From assembly GCA_041650335.1 (NCBI GenBank), contig JBAZLK010000006.1:5788-69787 (forward strand): DNA of 64,000 nt, read 5' to 3'. Shown one piece after another: positions 32,701 through 61,023 of the stretch. Within the stretch, counting starts at the first letter, position 1, and every line of letters starts with the position of its first letter. The DNA is from Patescibacteria group bacterium (GTDB taxonomy: Bacteria; Patescibacteriota; Patescibacteriia; JAHIZJ01). Both the position numbers and the translations under genes were made by a program. The notes beneath the pieces are model-generated. The model had not been told where the DNA came from, made no database searches, and worked only from the letters and a program-made list of their open reading frames with translations.

Positions 32701-32829
32701 TTGATACCCCGGAGCCGCGCGAATGCGCGGCTTCTTCGTTTCGTCCACGGAGGCGACTTGCGAAATTATGTACGTTCTGTATAATGAAGGTAGACTAGTT
32801 CTTTAGTAACTGGTCTGTTTTTATAAGAT

Positions 32830-32930
32830 AATTCAAAATTGATAATTAAAAATTCAAAATGAATGAGTCCTGATGTAACATCGGAATAACAATAATTTTA
32901 CATTTTGAATTTTGAATTATTAATTGCTTT
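32830..32930. promoter_or_regulatory. large AT-rich imperfect inverted repeat upstream of nusA
   Basis: aattcaaaattgataattaaaaattcaaaatg ... cattttgaattttgaattattaatt. The arms are about 85% complementary with a 35-nt spacer. Confidence 0.4.
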
Positions 32931-34363
32931 ACCCCATGAGTTCACCCATTCTCCAGGCCATGAAACAAATCTGCGACGAGAAAAACATCTCGATGGAATC
33001 TGTTATCGAAACGATTGAGGCGGCGCTCGCTGTTGCCTATCGAAAGGATTTTGGCGAGAAGAACCAAAATATCAAAGTCGAGTTTAACGCTGAAACCGGC
33101 GCCAGCCGAGTATTTGACGTGAAAACGGTCGTTGAGGTGACGGCCGAGCAAATTGCCGAAGAAGAGCGAGTGCGCGAGGAGCGGAAAAAGGCCAAAGCGG
33201 AAGCGGCCGAGGCGGCTGTCAAGGGTGAGGCCGAAAAACCGGTTGCGCCAGAAGAAAAAGAAGAGGTGGCTGAAGCTGAGCCGGAAACCGATGAAGAAAA
33301 AAAGCCAATCTTTGATCCAAAGACAATGATCCCGTTGTTTGAGGCGATAACAAAGGAAAAAGATGCGAAGGTCGGCGATGAGATCCGGACTGAATTATTT
33401 CCGCCGAACGCCTATGGCCGGATGGCCGCGCAAACAGCAAAACAGGTAATCATTCAGCGGCTGCGCGAAGCTGAGCGTGAGACGGTCTTTACGAAGTACA
33501 AGGATCGCGAGGGTCAGGTCATCAACGGCACGATCCAGCGGGTCGAAGGGCGAGTTGTGTTTGTCGATCTGGGCGATGCGGCCGCTATTATGCCGCCGTC
33601 AGAGCGCGTCGATACCGAAAATTACCAGCCGGGCATGCGCGTGAAATTTTACCTGGTCAGCATCAATCAAGCGCCGAAAGGGCCAGAAATTATTGTGTCG
33701 AGATCGCATCCTGAGTTAGTCAAAAAATTGTTTGAATTCGAAGTACCGGAAATTGCTTCAGGTGCCGTTGAGATCAAGTCGGTCGCGCGTGAAGCCGGCT
33801 CGCGGACAAAAGTCGCAGTTCTGTCGAAAGAGCCGAATATTGATCCGGTCGGTTCTTGCGTTGGTCAGCGCGGTACCCGCGTTCAAACCGTAATTTCTGA
33901 ATTAGGGGGCGAAAAAATAGACATTGTCGAATATGAAGACGATCCGGTAAAATTCATCATCAACGCCTTAGCGCCGGCGAAAATTCTCAGCGTCAAAATC
34001 AATGAACCGGAAAAAACAGCCTTGGCCGAAGTGAAGGAAGACCAATTATCGCTGGCGATCGGCCGCGGCGGTCAAAATGTCCGTTTAGCTGCCCGCCTCA
34101 CCGGTTGGAAGATTGATATCATCAAGGAAGGTGAAACGGGCCAAGCGGCGAAAGAGAAGCCGGCGGAAAAGGAGCCGGCGAAAGAAGAGTCGGCTGAAAA
34201 AGTAACAAGCGAGCCAGTTGAAGCGGTCACCGCCGAAACAGTCGTGCCGCCAGTTGAAGAAAAACCCGTTGACGAACCAACGGCCAAAAAAACAAAACGA
34301 AAAAAAAGCGAGTCGACCGAAGAATCCACTGATTCAGCGGACGCCGCCACAAATAACGAATAA
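32924..34363 (+). CDS. nusA: transcription termination/antitermination factor NusA with extended acidic/Lys-rich insertions
   Basis: NusA N-terminal domain, S1 domain (GQVINGTIQRVEGRVVFVDLG) and two KH domains (GSRTKVAV...GQRGTRVQ; LAIGRGGQNVRLA). E/K/A-rich insertion and C-terminal tail. Confidence 0.9.
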   Translation: MLYPMSSPILQAMKQICDEKNISMESVIETIEAALAVAYRKDFGEKNQNIKVEFNAETGASRVFDVKTVVEVTAEQIAEEERVREERKKAKAEAAEAAVKGEAEKPVAPEEKEEVAEAEPETDEEKKPIFDPKTMIPLFEAITKEKDAKVGDEIRTELFPPNAYGRMAAQTAKQVIIQRLREAERETVFTKYKDREGQVINGTIQRVEGRVVFVDLGDAAAIMPPSERVDTENYQPGMRVKFYLVSINQAPKGPEIIVSRSHPELVKKLFEFEVPEIASGAVEIKSVAREAGSRTKVAVLSKEPNIDPVGSCVGQRGTRVQTVISELGGEKIDIVEYEDDPVKFIINALAPAKILSVKINEPEKTALAEVKEDQLSLAIGRGGQNVRLAARLTGWKIDIIKEGETGQAAKEKPAEKEPAKEESAEKVTSEPVEAVTAETVVPPVEEKPVDEPTAKKTKRKKSESTEESTDSADAATNNE

Positions 34364-41919: not shown

Positions 41920-42648
41920 CTAGCAGATCGTGGAGCGGTAATGAGCAGGCCGATCCTGGAACGAAGCAATGCCGTCGCTCACCGACAGCGGCCAGAGCAT
42001 GCAGAGGTTGCCGTCTTCCGGATCGTCCGGATGTTCGAGCAGTGCGATTGCCTGCACGAGTCCGGCGCCGATTTCGAAGTACTCGGGCAGTAAGGCCGGA
42101 TTCTCGTGATTGTTCGGCGCGAAGCTGAAGACGGCCACATGCTTGCCCCACCAAGGCTGGGAACGCATGGTGGTTCCTCGCGTCACGCCGCGGAGATGGG
42201 CGGTGGCATGTATGGTCGGGGTCAGACGGCTCTTCCGGACCTGGAGTCGTCCGTCCCTCAGACCGCGAGAACAGGCGTCAACGACAGCCGCGTCGAGCTG
42301 CTGCAGGCCGTTACAGTAGATGTACGGCTGATCGGTGCGGATCGTGGTATCCGCGTTGATGAAGCGGAGACGAACGCGCCGCGAGTCGTTCGGGAAGTCG
42401 GGCTGATCGCAAAACAGCCGGCCGACGATGTGGACATCCTCGATCCGCTGGCCGTCCGGCAACATCGGAGTCGCGACGGTCCGTCGTCCGTACACGGCCA
42501 CGTGGCGGGTTTCATCCCTTACCGGAATTTCGACCACCCGTTCGAGGTGCAGGGCGATCTTCATCGACGTTGATTCGAGCGTAGCATCTTCGCCGGGTTG
42601 GCTGAACGCTTGCTCGATAGCACCAAACAGTGGACAGGTCAGTACCAT
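41920..42648 (-). CDS. hypothetical protein (GC-rich)
   Basis: 242 aa with no recognisable motifs. Divergent from tig. About 62% GC. Confidence 0.35.
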   Translation of the reverse strand: MVLTCPLFGAIEQAFSQPGEDATLESTSMKIALHLERVVEIPVRDETRHVAVYGRRTVATPMLPDGQRIEDVHIVGRLFCDQPDFPNDSRRVRLRFINADTTIRTDQPYIYCNGLQQLDAAVVDACSRGLRDGRLQVRKSRLTPTIHATAHLRGVTRGTTMRSQPWWGKHVAVFSFAPNNHENPALLPEYFEIGAGLVQAIALLEHPDDPEDGNLCMLWPLSVSDGIASFQDRPAHYRSTIC

Positions 42649-42937
42649 GACTTCTCCTCCTCATGTCGAGCCGACGACAACTGAAGAAGAGATAGTTATG
42701 TCCCGTGGTTCGATGGCTCTCACCACAGGCTCTGGTTTTGGCACCTTCTTCCAGCCGGTTTGGCCGGAAGGGTTGCCGAGCGGTCAATGGGCCAGCACCC
42801 TCGCGCTACTCGGCATAACTTCTCGACGGCGAGGACAGTGTAGGAAAGAACGCTTCGTCTGTCAAATTACGACTGACGAAGGTTTACAAAAGGCCGATAA
42901 TAGGCTACCATACAAAAACGTAACACCTATTTTTTAA

Positions 42938-51129: not shown

Positions 51130-51218
51130 TGGTGCCGCGGGAGAGCCCCGAACCATGCAAGATTCGGGGGAACTCTCATGGGGTTGCCCCGGACCCATCG
51201 CGGTTCGGGGTAAGTGTC
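51130..51218 (-). pseudogene. degenerate 3' fragment of tRNA-Leu(UAA) (variable arm, T-arm, acceptor, CCA) interrupted by two GC hairpins
   Basis: Reverse complement ...GGGGCAACCCCATGAGAGTTC[CCCCGAATCTTGCATGGTTCGGGG]CTCTCCCGCGGCACCA matches the 3' third of the intact tRNA-Leu. A 24-nt hairpin is inserted in the T-loop, and a second hairpin replaces the anticodon-stem 3' strand. Confidence 0.65.
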
Positions 51219-51478
51219 GTTGGCAAGCTGTCTCTAAACATCAGTTTCAACGTAGATCTGCCTTTTGATGTTTTAAAGTAACGCTCGCGTCGGACAGCAT
51301 CAAGTTTTGATAAAAAAGCTTCGTAGCCAATTATTGCCGGCCTGCCCATATGCGCAGTTGTCCAGCATTTACCATTGTTATGCTCGGTAATTCTACGCCT
51401 CAAGTTATTTGTTCTACCAATATACATTCGTCTCTGTGTCGGAGAAAAGAGGAAATACACATAATGCATAAAACTCAT
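51176..51478 (-). CDS. GIY-YIG nuclease family protein (small stand-alone GIY-YIG, UPF0213-like)
   Basis: HYVYFLFSPTQRRMYIGRTNNLRRRITEHNNG matches the GIY-(10-11)-YIG...R...E...N catalytic motif. The last 11 codons overlap the tRNA-Leu 3' fragment. Confidence 0.75.
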   Translation of the reverse strand: MSFMHYVYFLFSPTQRRMYIGRTNNLRRRITEHNNGKCWTTAHMGRPAIIGYEAFLSKLDAVRRERYFKTSKGRSTLKLMFRDSLPTTLTPNRDGSGATP

Positions 51479-51511: not shown

Positions 51512-51598
51512 TGGTGCCGCGGGAGAGAATCGAACTCTCATGGGGTTGCCCCCACAGGATTTTAAGTCCTGCGTGTATACCAGTTCCACCACCGCGGC
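51512..51598 (-). tRNA. tRNA-Leu (anticodon UAA), type II with long variable arm
   Basis: Reverse complement GCCGCGGTGGTGGAACTGGTATACACGCAGGACTTAAAATCCTGTGGGGGCAACCCCATGAGAGTTCGATTCTCTCCCGCGGCACCA. Confidence 0.85.
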
Positions 51599-51640: not shown

Positions 51641-51720
51641 ACCACGCCAGGTGCCGGATATCCCGAACCCATCGTGGTTCGGGATAAGTCCTGCGTGTAT
51701 ACCAGTTCCACCACCGCGGC
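51641..51720 (-). pseudogene. 5' fragment of tRNA-Leu(UAA) (acceptor 5' strand through anticodon position 35) fused to GC hairpin
   Basis: The 36 nt GCCGCGGTGGTGGAACTGGTATACACGCAGGACTTA are identical to the intact gene, then sequence diverges into TCCCGAACCACGATGGGTTCGGGA. Confidence 0.65.
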
Positions 51721-51727
51721 AGATACA

Positions 51728-52195: not shown

Positions 52196-52617
52196 TGCTG
52201 GACAAAGCCATCAACTACTTTTTGATACGCCCCGAAACTACATTCAGTATAGTTTTCTTTCGTCAGCCAGCGATAGCCCTTTGATTCCTCGTTGATAACA
52301 ATCTCGCCTTCGAGAAAACGGCAGCAATAAAAAACTAAGAACAGATTCATATTCGGATGTCTAACATTCGTCGGTGCGACGCGAAACTTAAAAACGTCAA
52401 AGAGATTATTAATCACAAAGCGTATATTTAAGCCGAGTTCCTCCAACAATTCACGGCGCAAGCATTCCGATACTGGCTGATCGATTTCCGACGCTTCAAT
52501 CCGGCCGCCGGGGACGTCCCAATATTCGCTATAAGCATCTTTCAACGCTAAGAAGCGCGAACCGTTCTGGAGAAAGGCTTTTATTCCTACCTGAAAATTT
52601 TTTCCTGCCATTGCCAT
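52183..52617 (-). CDS. NUDIX hydrolase
   Basis: Nudix box GGRIEASEIDQPVSECLRRELLEELGL. Confidence 0.8.
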   Translation of the reverse strand: MAMAGKNFQVGIKAFLQNGSRFLALKDAYSEYWDVPGGRIEASEIDQPVSECLRRELLEELGLNIRFVINNLFDVFKFRVAPTNVRHPNMNLFLVFYCCRFLEGEIVINEESKGYRWLTKENYTECSFGAYQKVVDGFVQQCLS

Positions 52618-52769
52618 GGTTTTATTCGTTCAATTATGTAAATTTACCATGAGGGACAGCAGGTGAACAAGCGCTTGTTCACCTGTGGTAGAGATTATCA
52701 AAAATGCCAATAAAATTGTATGAATAATTATTATAACTCTAATATTAGCCAAATATATTAAATAAGGTC

Positions 52770-52798
52770 TTGACAACAAGCAAAAAGTACGCTATTAT
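52770..52798 (+). promoter_or_regulatory. consensus sigma70 promoter TTGACA-17-TATTAT
   Basis: ttgaca at 52770-52775 and tattat at 52793-52798, at the start of an 800-bp gene-free region. Confidence 0.55.
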
Positions 52799-52804
52799 GC
52801 CTTG

Positions 52805-52993
52805 TTACACGATTGATTAGCGAACTTTATACGATCAAACGAGGAGAGAGTTTCCGCTAATACTAGCGGAATCGCCGCCCTGAGAAAGCGGCAAAAAAGC
52901 AACATTAGCCATATTCCTAGTTTAGGGTGGTGGTTTGTTGCGGCGTTCTCTCTTCTGATTGAACATCGCAGCAAAGCGCCACCCTTTTTTTTC
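52805..52993 (+). ncRNA. candidate small RNA (~190 nt) ending in a long Rho-independent terminator
   Basis: The transcript contains hairpins ccgcta-atac-tagcgg and gccgc-cctgagaaa-gcggc, and ends in an 18-bp imperfect stem GGGTGGTGGTTTGTTGCGGCG...CGCAGCAAAGCGCCACCC plus a T8 tract. No ORF. Confidence 0.35.
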
Positions 52994-53114
52994 TGCCGAA
53001 GCTCAACGTGTAGGCAGGTTGTTTGTCCGAATATCGGGGCTGATAGAGGTCACACATATTACATGGGCCTGAACTATCGCCCCGGGATTCGGGGAAATAA
53101 ACCAGAGGGGACGG

Positions 53115-53240
53115 ACATGGAGGGGAGTAGAGAACGGTTTGGATAGCTGATTCATTCGGGCTAACCCTCGAGGCTTCAGTGAAACAAACCGGTCCGCCGA
53201 GCTTCGGCTCAAAGACGGACACCTCGCCTCCAGCTTCGTC
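53115..53240 (+). ncRNA. structured RNA-like element, tandem copy 1
   Basis: Conserved blocks ACATGGAGGGGAGTAGAGAACGG, TGATTC, CGGGCTAACCCTCG, GGCTTCAG, GAGCTTCGGCTCAAA (a UUCG-capped hairpin) and CTCGCCTCCAG. The flanks of the UUCG hairpin are self-complementary (GTCCGCC / GACGGAC). Confidence 0.4.
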
Positions 53241-53332
53241 CCTTTGGGCTTCCGCCAGAGCGTACCGCGGCTATTGTCGATGGTATGCTCCGGCGGGAAA
53301 AGGCACCTTACAATAAATATCCCCCCGCACCG

Positions 53333-53456
53333 ACATGGAGGGGAGTAGAGAACGGTCCGCTGACCTGATTCTCCCGGGCTAACCCTCGCGGCTTCAGGAA
53401 AGCGCACTGGGCATGTGAGCTTCGGCTCAAAACATGTCAGTCTCGCCTCCAGTTCG
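53333..53456 (+). ncRNA. structured RNA-like element, tandem copy 2
   Basis: Same conserved blocks as copy 1. The variable segments differ but stay self-complementary (CATGT / ACATG flanking the UUCG hairpin; CTGAC / GTCAG), i.e. compensatory changes. Confidence 0.4.
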
Positions 53457-53503
53457 GTGCTGAGTATGCCTCGAACGTTGACAATTTATCCTCCGCCTGA
53501 CTT

Positions 53504-53512
53504 TGGTATAAT
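53504..53512 (+). promoter_or_regulatory. extended -10 promoter (TGgTATAAT) for island gene A, embedded in 12-bp inverted repeat atttatcctccg/cgggaggataaat
   Basis: tttggtataat at 53501-53512, with an inverted repeat at 53484-53495 and 53551-53562. Confidence 0.4.
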
Positions 53513-53617
53513 ACGAAAGTTAGACGGAGCCTCCTGACAATAGTTGTTGGGAGGATAAATTCAGGGTACGAGACACGGGGGTACGACACGGCAGAAATGC
53601 CAAGGAGGATCGAGATC

Positions 53618-54448
53618 ATGAAGAAGTTCTTCGTCGGCATGGGTGGCATCGCGGTCACGGCCATCATCTTGACCATCATCTTTGCCTTCTGGGGCCACAA
53701 TCTCAGTGAGCGCAAGGGCGAGCTGAACACCTGGAGCGGGGAACTGGCGAGCAAGGAGGCCGTGCTGAACCAGAAGGCTGAGGCACTCAACAACGCTCAG
53801 GCCGCGCTCAACCAGGCAAAGAACACGTTCGATGAACGCGTTCAGCGCGCCGAGTACATGCGGCAGCTCTTCACCGGCTTTCTGGCTCCGAGCTGGGAGC
53901 AGCAGGTGAAGATGGCGCGGGATTCCTACGGGGTCCTCGACCAGCGCTTCGATCAGTATCGCACGGTCGCCGAGGCGATGGCCAATCTCGGCAACTACAA
54001 CCTCACCTGGGAAGACGTCGGCATCAACGGCAACGAAGTGCGTTCGGCGCACGACCGGCTCGGACGCACCCTGGCGACCGAGCTGATCCAGTGCCTGGAC
54101 CAGCCGATCGAGTCACGGCGCGGACATTTCATCGGTCAGGGCGAAGGCTCGATCTCACTCGACGACCCCTGGGACGTCGGTCGCGAAATCGTCCAGCTGG
54201 TGAACGCCAGCGGGACGACCATCAAGGACTACGGCCTGAGCCCGGAACAATTCAGGGCCAAGCTGGTCCAAGACGCCCGCGAGCTCCTCGGCTATGCCCG
54301 GACCCTCAAGGGGACGGAGCAGTACCGCTGGGCCATGCAGTCGCTCGGTTCGTCCATCAACGAGTACAACATCGCCGGGCGCGAGCTCGGCCTCACCCAG
54401 AAGGAGAGGGATTTCCTCTGGGGGGAGTGCCGCTGCTACGTTCGGTGA
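53618..54448 (+). CDS. island gene A: hypothetical membrane-anchored coiled-coil protein
   Basis: RBS aaggagga; MKKFFVGMGGIAVTAIILTIIFAFWG TM helix, then a coiled coil and a C-terminal globular region. 63% GC. Confidence 0.45.
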   Translation: MKKFFVGMGGIAVTAIILTIIFAFWGHNLSERKGELNTWSGELASKEAVLNQKAEALNNAQAALNQAKNTFDERVQRAEYMRQLFTGFLAPSWEQQVKMARDSYGVLDQRFDQYRTVAEAMANLGNYNLTWEDVGINGNEVRSAHDRLGRTLATELIQCLDQPIESRRGHFIGQGEGSISLDDPWDVGREIVQLVNASGTTIKDYGLSPEQFRAKLVQDARELLGYARTLKGTEQYRWAMQSLGSSINEYNIAGRELGLTQKERDFLWGECRCYVR

Positions 54449-54517
54449 GCCCGACTCTCGCGTTGTTCTTCGGAACAAGGCAGGCGCGAGAATTCCAATG
54501 CACATCGCATATCTTCG

Positions 54518-54546
54518 GAGACGTCCTGCCCGTCTCCACCTTTTCT
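54518..54546 (+). terminator. Rho-independent terminator after island gene A
   Basis: ggagacg-tcctgcc-cgtctcc followed by accttttct. Confidence 0.55.
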
Positions 54547-54660
54547 GAGTCCGTAAACATGTTTTGTGAGCTCAGAGATAGGTAAGAAAACAATTCAAAA
54601 TAGTGAATTTATAAGGAAGAATAAAGAAAATCCCGCATGGCGGGATACAATAATTATTAA

Positions 54661-54691
54661 TTCTGAATTTTGAATTGTGAATTATTCTCCC
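54661..54691 (+). promoter_or_regulatory. conserved 31-nt intergenic element (TTCTGAATT...ATTATTCTCCC), copy 1
   Basis: ttctgaattttgaattgtgaattattctccc. The second copy at 57219-57249 is identical over its first 9 and last 11 nt. Confidence 0.45.
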
Positions 54692-54832
54692 TTGTGGCCG
54701 GCGATATCGAGGCTCCGAACTCTCTCCCGGAGTTTCGATATCTCTGGTCATATCACGACAGAGATCGGTTCTGAAACGCTCGTACCAGAGTGGTGCGAGT
54801 CATGCCTGAGCCGTTTCGTGGAGGATTGATCA

Positions 54833-55459
54833 ATGCGTACGGCGTTGCTCGTGGTGTTGTTGCTCGCGGTTCTGACCGGTGTGGCGCTGGCTGACCAGTG
54901 CCGCGATACCGGGGTCCAGCTCCAAGTCGTGGCGATCGGCGACAAACCGCTCGCTGCGAGCGGTACGAAGGCGATCTTCATCGGTGAATACCTGAAGATC
55001 CCGAGTGCTAGTACGGGTGGCGAGATCTACTTCGCTACCGTCGGGGTCAAGCAGCCCCTGCCGCACGATTGCTGGGTCCAGCCGGCCGCGAGTTACCTCG
55101 GCGGCTGGTACGCGAAACACGATGCCTCATCGTTGGCTCTTACCGCTGGGGCCAAGGCTGGGCCGGTGTACCTGACCCTGGATTTCAAGCGCTTTTCGGC
55201 GGTCGGCAATCACCGGACCAAGTTCTGGTACCACACGGTCGACTGGAAGTTCAACGGTCCGGCCGATCAAAAAGCGAAGGACAGAACCGGCGAGTACACC
55301 GTCGGGATCCACTTCAACAAGGTGGATCAGTCCGAACGCTGGGGGCTTCATCTGGCCAACCAGCTGAAACCCCATATCAGGCTAGAGGCCCGGTACTACC
55401 GGGTTCTCTACGGCGACGACCCGGTTCAGTACTTCCGGGCGCAACTGGCTATCTCTTGA
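54833..55459 (+). CDS. island gene B: secreted hypothetical protein
   Basis: Signal peptide MRTALLVVLLLAVLTGVALA. 208 aa with two Cys and no known domain. Confidence 0.45.
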   Translation: MRTALLVVLLLAVLTGVALADQCRDTGVQLQVVAIGDKPLAASGTKAIFIGEYLKIPSASTGGEIYFATVGVKQPLPHDCWVQPAASYLGGWYAKHDASSLALTAGAKAGPVYLTLDFKRFSAVGNHRTKFWYHTVDWKFNGPADQKAKDRTGEYTVGIHFNKVDQSERWGLHLANQLKPHIRLEARYYRVLYGDDPVQYFRAQLAIS

Positions 55460-55799
55460 CAGAACACCTCCGTGGCCGGGGCAATGGCCACAACCGGAGA
55501 GGCGCGCGCATTCCATGCTCAGCCCGCGCCTCTCCACCTCTTCCGAATCCTTGAGGCCATACCTCGATGGTTCAGATGAGTGACGCGGCATAAATTCACG
55601 TGGTTCGTGGGAGCTGACCGGAGTGCACATATGTGGGTTTCATATGTGTTCACTGCGGTCCGTTCTAGGACTTCGGTGGCAGGCTAGCCGCATGGTTTGT
55701 CTGACATCGATGGTAGTATAAGACGCGCCCGTGGCGTCTTTCGCGCCGGTCCCATAAAGCCGGCATCACTCAAGGGGGTTCCTGTTTCTGAGAGGAGTA

Positions 55800-57131
55800 T
55801 TGGGAATGCGCAAGCTCATCCTGATCCTTGTCCTGATCCCGCTGGCATCCTTCGGGTTGGCCAGCCTGGCCTCGGCCCACGGTCCGATCGGTCCGCATTC
55901 GCACTATGCGCTGCGCGACCCTGACGACTGGGGGTTGTGGGGTATGTCGGGCGGCGACGAACGCGTCTGGGTCCTGCTCATGAAGGCAAACCCGGACATC
56001 CCGAACGACCGGCGCATGCTGCCTGGGTATGCGGTCAACATCCCGGAAGGCGTGGTCATGACTGAAGACGGTCGCGCGGTGCTCGCTGAGACGACGCCTG
56101 TGACCGAACCGACGATTCCTGCGCTCAGGCATGACAGCGGAGACTCTCTGCGGGCGGCCGTCACGAGGATGGTCGGGGCGCAGGAAAACCAAAGCCGCGC
56201 GCTGAACTTCCTCGTCTGGGCGCTCGTCGTCGTGTTGGCCATACTCCTCATCACCGCGTTGGTCGCGATGAGCCGGGGTAACACCATCAGGGCGCGCAAC
56301 GACGAACTCGCCAGGCTGCGGCAGCGGCACGACGAGGAGATCGAGAGCGCGACCCGGGAGGCGGTCGAGGAGGAACGACGCCGGCGGCGCGAGCGTATCC
56401 AGCAGGATCCGTACGCGGGTCCGCCGGTCGTGGCTGCGGGGCTGCCGACAGGCAACCTGGCCGCTGACTTCATGGTGAACCTCTACCGGCGGCGCTTCCC
56501 CGATCCGCAAGGTGCGGAACGTGGCACGCGCCTGCTTCGCGTCGAGCCGATCTGGGTCGAGGGCTACGACATCAACGTCGGTTACGGCGATGACCGTCAG
56601 CGCCGTCGCAACCTTATGGACCAGCAGCCGGCCTGGCGCGGCGTCTTCTCCTCCGGCGTGGTGATGGACCTGCTTCAAAGGTGCGCGAACGGCCTGTTCT
56701 CCGAGATCGGCCAACAGCTTCGCGACGACCAGGTGAGTCCGCGACTGGGTATTCCGGCGCTGGACGTTAACCGGCTGGTCTGGCCCGAGCTGGCCACCGT
56801 GACCGCGTCCGTTCCCGTGCCGACGGCTCCGGTCGCTACCACCGATGCTTCGGTCGCGCCTGCGACACCGGGAACGACCCCGTCGGCCGTTCCTCCGGGA
56901 CCGCGGATGTTCGTCATCATGGATGATACCGCCATCTACCGCCACCCGGGCGACACCGCCTTCCGCATGCTGTCCATCATCGGCCTCGACATCCAGTCCA
57001 GCGAGCGGGGCATCACGCTCCGGCGGGACGGGAACGAGATCGTTCTGGGAACGGATGCGGCGGGTGACGACCGGCAGGCGGCGAAGATCGGCGAGATCGT
57101 CGCGCGCGCCGGCACGGGCAGCGCCAGCTAG
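55800..57131 (+). CDS. island gene C: membrane protein with N-terminal signal, LysM-like segment, TM helix, Arg-rich coiled coil and Pro/Thr/Ala-rich linker
   Basis: MRKLILILVLIPLASFGLASLASA; VWVLLMKANPDIPNDRRMLPGYAVNIP is a LysM-like C-terminal motif; TM helix ALNFLVWALVVVLAILLITALVAM; then EERRRRRERIQQ. Confidence 0.45.
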   Translation: MGMRKLILILVLIPLASFGLASLASAHGPIGPHSHYALRDPDDWGLWGMSGGDERVWVLLMKANPDIPNDRRMLPGYAVNIPEGVVMTEDGRAVLAETTPVTEPTIPALRHDSGDSLRAAVTRMVGAQENQSRALNFLVWALVVVLAILLITALVAMSRGNTIRARNDELARLRQRHDEEIESATREAVEEERRRRRERIQQDPYAGPPVVAAGLPTGNLAADFMVNLYRRRFPDPQGAERGTRLLRVEPIWVEGYDINVGYGDDRQRRRNLMDQQPAWRGVFSSGVVMDLLQRCANGLFSEIGQQLRDDQVSPRLGIPALDVNRLVWPELATVTASVPVPTAPVATTDASVAPATPGTTPSAVPPGPRMFVIMDDTAIYRHPGDTAFRMLSIIGLDIQSSERGITLRRDGNEIVLGTDAAGDDRQAAKIGEIVARAGTGSAS

Positions 57132-57218
57132 CACAACCTGAACGGCATCGCGCCGTTCAACAACCAGGAGGGGGCTGTCACCTGACGGCTCCCTCCAAAC
57201 TTCTTTCATCAATCATCC

Positions 57219-57249
57219 TTCTGAATTCAGAATTATCCATTATTCTCCC
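57219..57249 (+). promoter_or_regulatory. conserved 31-nt intergenic element, copy 2 (contains perfect palindrome TTCTGAATTCAGAA)
   Basis: ttctgaattcagaattatccattattctccc. Confidence 0.45.
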
Positions 57250-57260
57250 CACCGAATTGA

Positions 57261-57620
57261 TTGTTTCATGGAAAACAGTCAGCTCGGTGCGGATGGAAGT
57301 CAATATCCGCCGGGAGGATGAACGTGACCGGTTATTTCATTGCCGCTCTGACGGGGATTGTTACCATGATCGTCGTCATCGTGGCCTACGAGCTCAGTAA
57401 GAGAATCCGTCGGGTTGCAGTCGCAAACGCCGTCATTATTGTACTCATTGTCGTGGCGGTTTCTGCAGGCATCTTCGGCTTATGCCAAGACGACAAAGTA
57501 AGCGACATCCCGACGGCCCGTGTGTTCGTCTGGCTTGTCTCCTACTCCGTAGGTGCCCTGGCGGGATGGCTCTTGAGGATCCAAGATCGTATCAACCGCT
57601 GGTTGCCGGAGCGCGATTGA
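57261..57620 (+). CDS. island gene D: small membrane protein (3 TM)
   Basis: 119 aa ORF. The start may instead be at MNVTGYF. Confidence 0.35.
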   Translation: MFHGKQSARCGWKSISAGRMNVTGYFIAALTGIVTMIVVIVAYELSKRIRRVAVANAVIIVLIVVAVSAGIFGLCQDDKVSDIPTARVFVWLVSYSVGALAGWLLRIQDRINRWLPERD

Positions 57621-57773
57621 GGCTGACCGCGATCTGAATACTTCTCGTAGTCTACTGCATGGCAGTCGTTGAAACAACGCGGCGCGACAGCCGCACGGTG
57701 TACGAGTGGCTCGATCAGTTTGGCCGGACCGGACGGTTATCGCCGTCGGACCCCACAAACACGGAGGCGACCC

Positions 57774-58187
57774 ATGTTCCAGATCGAACTATCCCACACC
57801 TTCAACGTCGCTGAGTGGCGCTGTCCGGTTACTCGCATCGTTGACCTCGACTTCGTCGAGCGGGCGATTCGTCGCGGCAGTCTCGTGACGTTCACCTGCG
57901 CCATCGTCGGCTGCCACCACGAGGGGCGAGCGGTCGAGATGCGGAATCTGGACCGTGCGAAGAACGACGGCGTCATCGTGATCCTCTGTCAGGGCCATGC
58001 CTGTCAGATGGAGGATCAGGGACATCGTACGTACTGGCTCGACCAGACCCTAAGCCACGCTGTCCGGGGATTCCAGCAGCACTTCGACGAGGTGGTTGTC
58101 CGGACTGCGGACAGCCGGCCGCACACGCACCTTGGCCTGGTTCTCCAGGCGGCCTGCCGCCAGCAGCTCAGCCGTCAGGTCGCCTGA
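57774..58187 (+). CDS. island gene E: Cys/His-rich hypothetical protein (possible zinc-binding)
   Basis: RBS acggagg. C..C....CHHEG....ILCQGHAC..EDQGH residues are candidate metal ligands. Confidence 0.4.
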   Translation: MFQIELSHTFNVAEWRCPVTRIVDLDFVERAIRRGSLVTFTCAIVGCHHEGRAVEMRNLDRAKNDGVIVILCQGHACQMEDQGHRTYWLDQTLSHAVRGFQQHFDEVVVRTADSRPHTHLGLVLQAACRQQLSRQVA

Positions 58188-58463
58188 CCATCTGCACACC
58201 GCTCGTTACGAACGAGCCTACTTCTTACCTCGCTGGCACAGTCTTTCATGGCTGCGTCAGCGGGGTGCCTCTTGAAGCGCGTGATGGTTTATGCCATCAT
58301 GCATTTCAAACGGGTATGAGTATCACGCGTTCTCAAGGAACACGTCTTTGGCTAGCGGTGGCATCCCTGAGAGGAAACGGCGGAATGCCAAGTTCCCTTT
58401 TGGGACTTTCATCACCGCAGGCTACTTGTGAACGTAGCGCTATCTATGAAGGAGGTGGGTTCA

Positions 58464-58763
58464 ATGGGTTCGTGGAGCAGGGCATTGCTTATCGCGGTGA
58501 ACGTCGTGCTCTTACTTCCCAGTGTCGCCGGATTCGTCATCTGCATCCGCCTGATGTGGTTACGGCCGCGACCCGGAGACGTGACCTACCAGCACTTACG
58601 GAAGCGGATGACGTTTGCGGTGCTGTTGTTGGGAGCGCTCGAAGCCCTGTTGGTTAGCCAGCTGGGTCTCGGGGTAGCCGGGTTGATCACGAAACAAGCG
58701 CTGTATTTCGCGATCGCCTTTCAGGCGGTTCCGCGCTGCAGCCGGCTGGTCAGAAGTCCCTAG
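58464..58763 (+). CDS. island gene F: small membrane protein (2-3 TM)
   Basis: RBS gaaggaggtg precedes ATG 58464. The track ORF begins at the GTG at 58428. Confidence 0.4.
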   Translation: MGSWSRALLIAVNVVLLLPSVAGFVICIRLMWLRPRPGDVTYQHLRKRMTFAVLLLGALEALLVSQLGLGVAGLITKQALYFAIAFQAVPRCSRLVRSP

Positions 58764-58779
58764 ACAAGGAGGTCGAGTC

Positions 58780-59454
58780 ATGCAGGTCAAGAGTTTGATG
58801 TACCGGTTGGCCACTTTCCATGTCACCATGAGGGGCGGCCGCATCCCGTCCTTGGTTCTCATCACGGCGCTCTTGCCCGTCGTTCTCGGCGCGCTTGTCT
58901 GTGCTCCGCCGAACCCGATAGAACACCTGGTCACCCGTGAACAAGCGACCTTTGTACTCCAGGCGGTTGCCCAGGCGCAGAATGATCAGCTCGAGTCGGT
59001 ACCGCTCTATCCCGCACCGGGCATCACCGGACTGGTTCCGGTGTGTCCGACGAAGGGTGCGGAAGTCTGGACGGTCTTTGACGGCGGAGTCAGGAACGAA
59101 CAAACGATGCGTCGGATGGTCTGGACGCGGTTTCCTTCCACGGGCCGCCGAGCCAGCCCATTCTCTGATCCGTCAGCGTTCCAGCCGATGGACGACATCG
59201 GCAATCAACCCGCGTCCAAGACCTGTCCGGGCATCGCGGAAAATGTTCGCTACGTCTGGTATAATGTCGATCTGGCGCCGTCCGTCGAGCGACATTTCCG
59301 GATCTGGGGCGACCATTGGTACCTCGAGGTCCAGGGCGCGTCGTCGGGTCAGTACCGACTGTCGATTGCTCATGACCGTCAGGGGCGACGTAAGGCCGAG
59401 GACGTTTCCAGTTTGATCGAGAGGGCGCTCGCGTTCTGCCAGGCGAGACGTTAG
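58780..59454 (+). CDS. island gene G: hypothetical protein with N-terminal TM/signal anchor
   Basis: RBS caaggagg. 224 aa, no known domain. Confidence 0.4.
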   Translation: MQVKSLMYRLATFHVTMRGGRIPSLVLITALLPVVLGALVCAPPNPIEHLVTREQATFVLQAVAQAQNDQLESVPLYPAPGITGLVPVCPTKGAEVWTVFDGGVRNEQTMRRMVWTRFPSTGRRASPFSDPSAFQPMDDIGNQPASKTCPGIAENVRYVWYNVDLAPSVERHFRIWGDHWYLEVQGASSGQYRLSIAHDRQGRRKAEDVSSLIERALAFCQARR

Positions 59455-59552
59455 CCGCCAGCACATTACATCAGGCTTATTGAGGAGACGCCTTAACCCC
59501 ACACCAGTCGTCATGTACCAGACGGTTCATGACTTCCGGTGCGGGGACTCCT

Positions 59553-59593
59553 CACTTTTTCCGAATTCAGAAGCATCAGTTTCTGAATTCAGA
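59553..59593 (+). promoter_or_regulatory. inverted repeat GAATTCAGAA-N8-TTCTGAATTC upstream of island gene H
   Basis: Same half-sites as the palindrome at 57219, separated here by 8 nt. Confidence 0.45.
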
Positions 59594-59630
59594 GGAAGTG
59601 GTCTGACAACTGTATGAAGGAGGTGTTTTT

Positions 59631-59918
59631 ATGACCCATACATTGTCTACCGCATGGTTCCCGTTCCTGATCGGGTTTGCGGGTATTGTCACGATAGCGG
59701 CAATCTTCAGTCGGCTACCGGTATTTTACCCGCGTCCCAAACTGCTCCTCTTCGGCATCACCGGCATCATCGTACTCACAACCTCGTGGCTTCTCCGTTT
59801 CCGCGGGAATGAGCCGATCGTGTACGCCGGCACCTGGGTCGGGATGATGGCCGGACTGGCATATCCAATCGCGCTGCAGCGGTTGAAACGCCAGATCCGG
59901 AGAATGCTTGTCCGATGA
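59631..59918 (+). CDS. island gene H: small membrane protein (3 TM)
   Basis: RBS gaaggaggtg. 95 aa. Confidence 0.4.
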   Translation: MTHTLSTAWFPFLIGFAGIVTIAAIFSRLPVFYPRPKLLLFGITGIIVLTTSWLLRFRGNEPIVYAGTWVGMMAGLAYPIALQRLKRQIRRMLVR

Positions 59919-60228: not shown

Positions 60229-60276
60229 TATTTACGCAATAGCCGATCTGCGCTATGATAGATGGGTAGGAAAACT

Positions 60277-61023
60277 ATGCCGAACCAACTAACGCAAATC
60301 CAAAAGCCGGCTACTCCGCCAGCCAAACCGAAAAGGTGGCACTGGTACCGAACCTGGTGGGGGATTTTGTTTATCGTCTGTGGTGTTGCCTTGTTCGGCA
60401 CGCTGACATTTTTTGCCTGGCGCTTACTCGTGATTTTTCAGAAAAACATCGTCGCCGCTTCAAACAACAATGCGGACGTCGTCCAGGCTGGCCCCTCGGG
60501 CGTAACCGAGGATGACCCGCGATTTGGCAATGCTCAGGCCACGATACAGATTGTTGAATTCGGTGATTTTCAATGTCCGTATTGCAAGGAGGCATCAACG
60601 ATTGTTCGATCAATCATGAACGAATATGCGGATGACATCTTGTTTGTCTATCGCGATTTTCCGGTGGCTGACCTCCATCCTGATGCCGAGAAAGCGGCCG
60701 AGGCGGGCGAGTGCGCGCACGACCAGGGTAAATTTTGGGCGATGCATGATAAACTTTTTGAAAATCAGAATGCGCTCTCAGTGGCTGATTTAAAGAACTA
60801 CGCGGTTCAAGTTGGCCTCAATACCGATACGTTTAACTCCTGCCTCGACTCGGGTATAAACGCCATCGAGGTTGCCAAAGATTTGCAGGACGGCGTCGAG
60901 CTGGCAAAAAATCTGACGACGATTGGCACGCCGTTGTTTATTGTCAATGGATATCCGATCCCCGGCGTCATCACCGATGAAAAATGGCACGAGCTGTTAG
61001 ACGGATTACTTTCGGTTAAATAA
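60277..61023 (+). CDS. DsbA-family thiol:disulfide oxidoreductase, membrane-anchored
   Basis: N-terminal TM helix and CPYC active site (FGDFQCPYCKEA). Confidence 0.8.
   Translation: MPNQLTQIQKPATPPAKPKRWHWYRTWWGILFIVCGVALFGTLTFFAWRLLVIFQKNIVAASNNNADVVQAGPSGVTEDDPRFGNAQATIQIVEFGDFQCPYCKEASTIVRSIMNEYADDILFVYRDFPVADLHPDAEKAAEAGECAHDQGKFWAMHDKLFENQNALSVADLKNYAVQVGLNTDTFNSCLDSGINAIEVAKDLQDGVELAKNLTTIGTPLFIVNGYPIPGVITDEKWHELLDGLLSVK

Follow-up and report, generated by a model that had tools for sequence, protein, structure and literature searches.

An eight-gene island in a Patescibacteria contig

The stretch of DNA analyzed here (hereafter the window) is 64,000 nucleotides (nt) long and comes from a metagenome-assembled genome (MAG) of a Patescibacteria group bacterium (GenBank assembly GCA_041650335.1, contig JBAZLK010000006.1, positions 5,788 to 69,787 of the forward strand). 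Within it we focus on an island of eight consecutive genes on the + strand, which we call A to H, on the long non-coding region in front of A, and on the gene for a DsbA-like protein that follows H. The deposited record of each of the eight products reads “hypothetical protein” and belongs to a Patescibacteria MAG, and neither Pfam, PHROGs, NCBIfam and PADLOC nor the sequences of the PDB gave a significant match to any of them. Profiles built for the families of A, B and C returned only noise against PDB sequences, and a word-indexed homologue search yielded one to three relatives for each of these three proteins.

The starts of the eight genes were placed by AGGAGG-type ribosome-binding sites and by exact matches to deposited proteins. 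Gene A (53618-54448) encodes 276 amino acids (aa) with an N-terminal transmembrane (TM) anchor, a coiled-coil segment and a globular domain with a conserved GQGEG..LDD core. Gene B (54833-55459, 208 aa) has a signal peptide and a predicted transmembrane-type β-barrel of 11-12 strands, to which we return below. The largest gene, C (55806-57131, 441 aa), has a signal peptide and one internal TM helix at residues 135-153. Three small genes, D (57324-57620, 98 aa), F (58464-58763, 99 aa) and H (59631-59918, 95 aa), each encode 2-3 TM helices, of which two are strongly hydrophobic and the third is weaker. Gene E (57774-58187, 137 aa) encodes six Cys, nine His and no TM helix, and it was found in this genome alone. 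Gene G (58780-59454, 224 aa) has an N-terminal anchor and four Cys. Thus, hydropathy predicts a signal peptide or TM helices in seven of the eight products. The DsbA-like thioredoxin-fold protein (60262-61023, + strand) has an N-terminal TM helix.

The GC content of the island is 60.1%, compared to 52.5% in the rest of the window. Individual genes range from 55% to 67%, and their GC content at third codon positions (GC3) is 0.67-0.86, compared to 0.49-0.73 in 14 reference genes. A preliminary description of this DNA, written by a model that saw only the letters and their open reading frames (ORFs), had reported eight same-strand, GC-rich genes with strong ribosome-binding sites, products of no recognizable family, and terminators between genes. 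All of this is borne out, the last by terminator-like hairpins 3′ of A, B, C, E and G, and the topologies it proposed agree with our hydropathy profiles. Its suggestion that C is LysM-like was dropped, given that no LysM match was obtained at E ≤ 1.

The same slot in related lineages

Related contigs (given L numbers below) were fetched through relatives of F and H that are at least 90% identical, and through a few homologues of A, C and B. A synteny search of this kind had been proposed in the preliminary description, and it recovered the gene slot, with varying content, in four Patescibacteria lineages: the window, its siblings L001/L007, L012 (GCA_028714495) and L027/L038 (a 697-kb contig). 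The left flank common to all four consists of a cNMP/GAF gene, in some cases a GIY-YIG gene, tRNA-Leu, SpoU and NUDIX. The right boundary is in every case the membrane-anchored DsbA-like gene, identified by Pfam matches (Thioredoxin_4/DSBA) on the orthologues. Between NUDIX and DsbA, the slot holds a long non-coding stretch and then a run of same-strand genes without a Pfam match. There are eight such genes in the window and eight in L001/L007, 11 in L012, and at least 22, spanning about 17 kb, in L027/L038. A fifth, more distant island, in L035, resembles them in style and contains a pilin-like gene as well as two genes of the B family.

All four syntenic islands are 6-8 GC points above their own flanks. 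Because the elevation is found in all of them, the composition is best regarded as a property of the locus across the clade rather than as a sign of recent import.

The tRNA-Leu gene of the window (51512-51598) lies ~2 kb from the island, with two core genes, SpoU and NUDIX, in between. Compared with the sibling L001, the window has an extra 100-aa GIY-YIG ORF (51176-51478, - strand) adjoining this tRNA gene, and there is an exact 37-nt copy of the 5′ half of the tRNA at 51685-51721. The ORF and the duplicate together look like the footprint of a small insertion into a tRNA gene. A GIY-YIG gene is also present in L012 and L038.

Divergence within the island and turnover of coding cassettes

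Comparison with the sibling L007 reveals a mosaic. Six flanking core proteins are 91-99% identical between the two genomes, and F (97%) and H (95%) fall within this range. B is 81% identical, G 53%, D 42% and A 27%, and C and E are absent from L007, which in turn has two genes that the window lacks, one for an 84-aa membrane protein and one for a product of 151 aa. In comparison with the more distant L012, core proteins are 43-73% identical and A is 68% identical. Given that A of the window resembles its counterpart in distant L012 (68%) far more than that in the sibling (27%), the window allele looks vertically inherited and the L007 allele looks to be the one that was replaced. Despite their divergence, the alleles of A share the TM anchor, the coiled-coil stretch and the conserved core.

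The intergenic linkers behave differently, in that they are 90-100% identical to those of the sibling even beside genes that differ. For example, the L007 spacer between its B gene and the gene for the 84-aa protein consists of the first 87 nt of the window B-C spacer joined to the last part of the C-D spacer. Similarly, the 34 nt before the start codon of D recur unchanged (100% identity) as leader of the 84-aa gene in L007, although the two genes are unrelated. The edges of the C cassette can be placed at 55496-55584 on the left, where homology to the sibling breaks, and at 57167-57249 on the right. The breakpoints of the A replacement are at the start codon and the terminator, not in the hairpin repeats described below. 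Coding cassettes have thus been exchanged, inserted or deleted between linkers that are themselves conserved. Overall, the presence of the same slot in four lineages, the GC enrichment of all four islands, and the failure to see an integrase or flanking direct repeats in the neighborhoods annotated or scanned indicate, as judged from sequence comparison, that the locus is an old hypervariable slot with cassette turnover and not a recent import.

A diversity-generating retroelement target was considered as a source of the divergence and dropped, as we saw neither a reverse transcriptase nor a pair of template and variable repeats, and whole genes are divergent. It should also be noted that the 236 nt before F (58228-58463) are 90% conserved with the sibling, though the upstream gene differs (E here, a D counterpart there). 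Gene callers variously extend F into this region or place small ORFs in it, and it may be another structured leader.

Terminator-linked hairpins and a dispersed AT-rich element

The linkers are rich in palindromic sequence, which we assign to two classes. The first is a module in which a GC-rich terminator-like hairpin is followed directly by a second hairpin. On the + strand 3′ of A, the terminator hairpin occupies 54517-54537 and the second hairpin 54538-54583, and the pyrimidine tail of the terminator, CCUUUUCUGAG, is itself the 5′ arm of the second hairpin. The corresponding pair 3′ of B is at 55496-55535 and about 55536-55584, and that 3′ of G is at 59497-59546 and 59552-59601, with the second hairpin there formed from the palindromes TTCCGAATTCAGAA and TTCTGAATTCAGAG. 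These two palindromes, which lie before H, make one 22-bp hairpin, with a folding energy of -27.6 kcal/mol on the + strand and -23.0 on the - strand, and it is conserved in L007. A strong terminator 3′ of C (57167-57196) is followed by the perfect palindrome TTCTGAATTCAGAA (57219-57232) and the junction ATTATTCTCCCCACCGAATTG (to 57249). This palindrome, which stands before D, looks like a second-hairpin unit that has collapsed and lost its loop. A terminator-like hairpin (58201-58217) also lies 3′ of E.

A search for the module as TTCYGAR...YTCAGAR with arms 0-32 nt apart gave four copies in the island of the window, three in L007, five in L012 and four in L027, and one further copy (55538-55582) was added by eye. 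Outside islands, one probably fortuitous copy was found in the window and none in the other flanks, so that the window has four copies in a 7.6-kb island region and one in the remaining 56 kb. Each copy lies directly 3′ of a GC-rich terminator-like hairpin, whose pyrimidine tail (CYYTTCCGAG) doubles as the 5′ arm of a second, 17-22-bp hairpin, and the 3′ arm of this second hairpin is purine rich and Shine-Dalgarno-like (CTCAGAAGRRG). The inner stem varies between copies yet still pairs, and the arms are 0-26 nt apart. In 13 of 15 copies from four lineages, folding is stronger for the + strand than for its complement (summed energies of -330 vs. -263 kcal/mol). The variable spacing and the G-U asymmetry between strands point to a hairpin that functions as RNA rather than to an operator with fixed half-sites.

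The second class is an AT-rich palindromic element of ~100 nt before B (54587-54690), in which arms of the AATTCAAAAT type surround a short GC hairpin (54630-54646). It recurs in the window at 32812-32932, upstream of nusA, and in inverted orientation in L001 (17275-17395), after a hydrogenase large-subunit gene. The central GC hairpin differs between copies but pairing is kept. This element may be a bidirectional terminator or a repeat of the MITE/REP type (miniature inverted-repeat transposable element or repetitive extragenic palindrome). In the L027/L038 island, related AATTCAAAATTAAGAATTC repeats are common and flank the RNA copies (see below).

The preliminary description had singled out a 31-nt repeat and the palindromes, and both are located as it claimed. 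The repeat occurs at 54661-54691, in the AT-rich element, and at 57219-57249, with 84% identity between the two copies. An apparent sigma-70 promoter inside it was dropped, as only 3/6 and 4/6 hexamer matches could be found by eye. The conclusion drawn there, that one dimeric DNA-binding factor co-regulates the genes, is another matter. A regulon or operon switched by a protein that recognizes TTCTGAATTCAGAA would account for the frequency of TTCYGAATTCAGAR (four matches at three sites, all in the island, vs. 0.02 expected), for the position of the palindrome 50-170 nt upstream of B, D and H, and for its presence at orthologous sites in the sibling. The palindromes thus pass the check on orthologous promoters that the preliminary description had set, but this carries little weight, because the linkers around them are 90-98% identical as a whole and the palindromes are no better conserved than these linkers. 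When one mismatch was allowed in the 10-mer core, there was no significant enrichment across the window (nine vs. 5.5 expected). Half-sites spaced by 0 to 26 nt over 15 copies, with inner sequences that differ yet pair, are unlike an operator. In addition, the copy before B is part of the dispersed AT-rich element, the islands of L012, L027 and L035 have no exact copy of the palindrome, and no DNA-binding protein is encoded in the island or was seen in the annotated flanks. We thus consider a single dimeric regulator improbable, and split the palindromes into the two classes given above.

A second alternative is an integron-like cassette array that lacks its integrase, with the terminator-linked inverted repeats acting like attC. 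In favor of this, the locus is a same-strand array of units, each made up of an ORF and a 3′ imperfect inverted repeat with a variable center between conserved arms, and a copy of the repeat stands at either edge of the C insertion. The R″ and R′ boxes of attC follow the consensus RYYYAAC ... GTTRRRY. The arms found here, TTCCGAG ... CTCAGAA, do not match this consensus. Integron cassettes are also typically promoterless or leaderless, whereas the cassettes of this island have long leaders, their own ribosome-binding sites and terminators. There is no match to a tyrosine recombinase or Phage_integrase in the annotated neighborhoods, the breakpoints of the A replacement avoid the repeats, and the strand asymmetry in folding energy also fits a plain RNA hairpin. 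This explanation also seems to us improbable, and somewhat more so than the regulator.

With the hairpins read as parts of RNA, the closest known counterparts are REP elements and intercistronic or bidirectional terminator stem-loops, which share the short imperfect 3′ palindromes, the conserved stem base with a variable top, and a probable action on RNA 3′ ends or stability. Unlike REP elements, the module is confined to islands in the sequence examined, no RAYT transposase was seen, and the 5′ arm doubles as the pyrimidine tail of the terminator. We found no described family either for this module or for the structured RNA to which we now turn.

A tandem structured RNA at the head of the island

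The 1000 nt before A (52618-53617) are non-coding and conserved. They are headed by a sigma-70-type promoter-like site (52770-52798, + strand; TTGACA-17-TATTAT, 11/12 matches), and L012 and L038 have TTGACA-17-TATACT at the same relative place. A conserved leader RNA follows (52800-52992, + strand), which comprises GAGGAGAGAG, then a hairpin GGGUGGUGG...CGCCACCC (52925-52984), and then a U8 tract. GAGGAGAGAG, near the 5′ end of the leader, is complementary to CUCUCUUCU in the top of the hairpin. The leader (~190 nt) is conserved in L007 and L012, and a matching leader can be read in L038. It could be an attenuator or a small RNA.

Between this leader and A are two tandem 150-nt elements, at 53100-53249 and 53318-53468 on the + strand, that fold to the same three-way junction (the fold z-score of the first copy is -5.5). 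A covariance model, R1, built from six copies scores the first at 143.7 bits on the + strand and 10.5 on the - strand, and the second at 160.2 and 22.4 bits, respectively. R1 finds 10 copies in five sources (two each in the window, L007 and L027, three in L012, and one in a metagenome fragment, L023). All are on the gene strand, with 53-161 bits, compared to at most 25 bits on the opposite strand. In the alignment of the 10 copies, 95.7% of cells are paired, and for 29 of the 47 pairs both partners vary, whereas control alignments with slid partner columns are 34-45% paired. One copy has a 21-nt hairpin insertion in a terminal loop. An ORF that had been called inside the motif in L012 was rejected, because its frame is lost in the window copies, which hit stops after nine and 15 codons. 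Rfam 15 returned no match to 52600-53600, even at E ≤ 10. On the strength of the covariation, we regard the 150-nt element as a genuine, undescribed structured RNA.

An exact-pattern scan of species-representative genomes found the motif in two species only. Scanning of metagenome contigs gave 11 loci, of which only L023 is a true copy, and in viral contigs there was a single match that can be attributed to chance. Most copies are 64-250 nt upstream of genes for exported proteins (in L012, one is between A and the gene for a secreted 269-aa protein), although one L027 copy is >800 nt from the next long gene. We identified no terminator or Shine-Dalgarno-sequestering helix that is shared among copies. 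The element could equally be a riboswitch-like leader or a small RNA gene. Tandem riboswitches (e.g., tandem glycine aptamers) offer a parallel, in that two or three adjacent, covarying copies are found on the coding strand upstream of genes. The element differs from them in having no Rfam family, known ligand or clear expression platform, and in preceding genes for envelope ORFans rather than for metabolism or transport.

Predicted structures and topology of island proteins

The most surprising element of the island is the structure predicted for B, because the phylum is described as monoderm (see below). B and its three relatives from the word-indexed search made up a four-sequence profile, which retrieved 12 proteins at E ≤ 0.001 among 1.84 billion cluster representatives. 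Most of the matches are 170-208 aa long with a signal peptide, and two of the weakest are much longer. Every match that was looked up is a cluster of one, and those with names come from Patescibacteria MAGs or from an unclassified “bacterium.” With four sequences, AlphaFold gave no usable model of B (pLDDT, the predicted local confidence score, of 36.7). With the 12-sequence alignment, AlphaFold2 produced a model with a pLDDT of 84.5 and a pTM (the predicted global score) of 0.77, consisting of a signal helix and eleven long antiparallel strands (as called by DSSP) connected by short turns. Most strands are amphipathic, with a hydrophobic face that alternates with a polar or charged one.

Comparing proteins by predicted structure had been proposed in the preliminary description, and for B, the protein modeled, it gave a porin-like barrel. 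Foldseek matched the model to PDB entries for the EspP β-domain (E = 4e-4, TM-score 0.52) and the 12-stranded porin KdgM (TM-scores 0.54/0.64, root-mean-square deviation 4.1 Å), with further fold matches to OmpC/OmpF, TamA, BrkA, PcoB and VDAC, and matches in the viral structure library BFVD were porins as well. Like KdgM/NanC-type porins and autotransporter β-domains (PDB 4pr7, 8qn4), B has a signal peptide, ~180 mature residues and 11-12 amphipathic antiparallel strands. It has no sequence similarity to these proteins, however (10-12% identity), and its host belongs to a phylum regarded as monoderm. Of the features expected of such a barrel, prediction thus supplies the signal peptide and the amphipathic antiparallel strands, and the aromatic-ended β-signal is missing. 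From the model, B is probably a membrane-type β-barrel.

C is the next gene after B in both the window and L030, and in L027 a 48-aa ORF separates a B paralogue from the C homologue that follows it. Genes of the B family are also found beside type IV pilin-like genes in similar ORFan islands of L034 and L035. The pilin-like proteins, recognized by N_methyl-type N-termini, are encoded at 16542-16961 in L012, at 88-483, 539-928 and 2732-3088 in L034, and at 6539-6979 in L035. The L012 island thus includes one such gene and the window island none. Other signal-peptide proteins are encoded directly 3′ of RNA-motif copies in L012 (11253-12090, 269 aa) and L027 (447-1037, 196 aa). Both are β-rich as judged from their sequences, with C-termini ...SFSYSF and ...IKLDY, respectively, and may be further barrel-like proteins. 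The B-family profile detected no homology to either.

C consists of a signal peptide, an external domain of ~110 aa, the TM helix, an Arg/Glu-rich helix, a conserved domain, a Pro/Thr linker and a C-terminal domain. In its homologues there is a near-invariant segment of ~150 residues, which includes QRCANGLFSEIGQQ, after the TM helix and the Arg-rich stretch. By the positive-inside rule this segment is probably on the cytoplasmic side, in which case C would be bitopic and join the outer domain of ~110 aa to an inner domain. No relative of C was found in viral contigs. G is 25% identical to an L012 protein that has a lipoprotein-type signal (LIFGC).

Interpretation and comparison with known systems

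Our preferred reading, to which we assign a probability of roughly 0.6, is that a small Patescibacteria clade has long kept a hypervariable envelope island at this fixed slot. We infer from the gene content and comparisons that its function is that of a diversifying cell-envelope locus. The island proteins would contribute the changeable components of the cell surface (among them a channel, coiled coils with a membrane anchor, and lipoprotein-like and small membrane proteins), and their external Cys could be oxidized by the neighboring DsbA-like protein. Variation would arise via homologous recombination in the conserved linkers and be kept by diversifying selection from hosts or phages, and the raised GC3 might result from frequent recombination (GC-biased conversion) or from selection for high expression. 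The tandem RNA would act in cis as a sensor or leader that controls whether transcription or translation proceeds into the island. For each cassette, transcript ends or stability would be set by its terminator and second hairpin, and the hairpin and AT-rich elements may also uncouple cassettes and supply homology for recombination.

There are several points that weigh against this reading. E is cytosolic and F and H are conserved like core genes, so that the locus is neither uniformly variable nor uniformly surface-exposed. The families are tiny, which precludes proper measurement of selection. The DsbA-like protein is linked to the island by position only, and promoters of B to H could not be placed with confidence. 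The island of L035 ends at MurJ rather than at DsbA, and its GC content is not raised. The barrel rests on one AlphaFold model from 12 sequences, with moderate TM-scores (0.52-0.64). The C-terminus of B is ...LAIS, with no aromatic residue, and those of close relatives are ...LAIS or ...LKIS, although four distant members of the family end in ...F. To our knowledge, no β-barrel assembly machinery (BAM) is known in the phylum. Patescibacteria have been described as monoderm (PMC11665869; PMC8871954), and neither an outer membrane nor BAM would then be expected. A precedent for a surface layer of barrels outside classical lipopolysaccharide outer membranes is offered by the β-barrel arrays of the Thermotogae toga (bioRxiv 10.1101/2022.09.22.508938), but this is purely an analogy. 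A bolder version, in which this clade makes its own family of porin-type barrels, either for an unrecognized outer layer or for insertion into the host membrane as a means of drawing nutrients, and in which a tandem three-way-junction, riboswitch-like RNA gates expression of the fast-evolving surface locus, is a speculation that we consider unlikely.

The preliminary description took the island to be a horizontally acquired module, and its wider form, a foreign island or mobile element recently inserted by tRNA-Leu, deserves consideration. In its favor are the atypical GC and GC3, the fact that all genes are ORFans, and the tRNA-Leu 2 kb away, with its duplicated 37-nt fragment and a GIY-YIG ORF that has no counterpart in the sibling. 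Synteny largely refutes it: an island occupies the same NUDIX/DsbA-like slot in four lineages, between which core proteins have diverged by as much as 30-57%, and GC is raised in each. The neighborhoods annotated in these lineages showed no integrase, transposase or phage gene and none for conjugation, in line with the absence of an integrase reported in the preliminary description, and a repeat scan found no flanking direct repeats. That description placed the island beside a tRNA-Leu/GIY-YIG locus. The tRNA is indeed present, but SpoU and NUDIX stand between it and the island. Viral contigs contain neither a relative of C nor a copy of the RNA motif. In short, base composition is atypical, as is usual for genomic islands, but relatives are occupied at the same site, the annotated neighborhoods and the repeat scan showed no mobility gene or flanking direct repeat, and the island is not inserted directly at a tRNA. 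We therefore regard recent acquisition as very unlikely. Of the initial proposals, a compositionally distinct block of exported and membrane ORFans is upheld and a role in the cell envelope or in host interaction is plausible, but recent acquisition and a single regulator find no support as stated. A decayed prophage or lysis module is scarcely credible, as the many small TM proteins and the weak PHROG matches of A and C to Rz-like spanins (E-values 0.02-0.07, not significant, and covering the TM helix and coiled coil only) are the sole hints of it, with no capsid, tail, terminase, integrase or endolysin genes and nothing related in viral contigs.

A diversifying envelope locus at a fixed slot has known parallels in the replacement-type flexible genomic islands, such as the cell-wall-associated island of Haloquadratum walsbyi (PMC4535781), and in O-antigen and capsule loci. 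The shared features are a fixed site between core genes, content that diverges in relatives, the lack of mobility genes, and exported or surface products (the surface location here being predicted). A shared core context with divergent content is indeed what we found (core 91-99% identical vs. island 27-97%, with gene gain and loss). In contrast to those systems, the locus described here belongs to a reduced genome of the candidate phyla radiation (CPR) and is built of tiny, mostly monocistronic ORFan cassettes, joined by structured linkers that are conserved, and the cassettes encode proteins of no known family instead of glycosyltransferases or S-layer proteins. The general kind of locus is thus known, and its content is new: ORFan cassettes with structured linkers, a predicted porin-like family in a monoderm phylum, and a tandem RNA.

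Little is known of how CPR bacteria (Patescibacteria) attach to their hosts and feed on them, and ORFans make up most of their surface proteins. A hot spot of envelope-protein turnover between nearly identical genomes is a candidate determinant of host or phage specificity. A predicted porin-like family in a phylum thought to be without an outer membrane bears on models of the CPR envelope and on the diderm/monoderm debate, and a new RNA together with a terminator-hairpin module could show how a minimal genome regulates and shuffles its surface genes. Should the barrel prediction or the surface location prove wrong, the locus would be no more than an ordinary variable island specific to its lineage.

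Other observations

The species-representative genome of the sibling lineage, L014 (CAYJKP010000002.1), bears the title “uncultured Gammaproteobacteria bacterium,” probably in error, because its locus matches MAGs named Patescibacteria by NCBI and the window encodes RNase Y. Elsewhere in the window, and unrelated to the island, there is an S-adenosylmethionine (SAM) riboswitch (RF00162, 49.7 bits) at 42693-42821 on the - strand, beside same-strand ORFs at 41920-42648.

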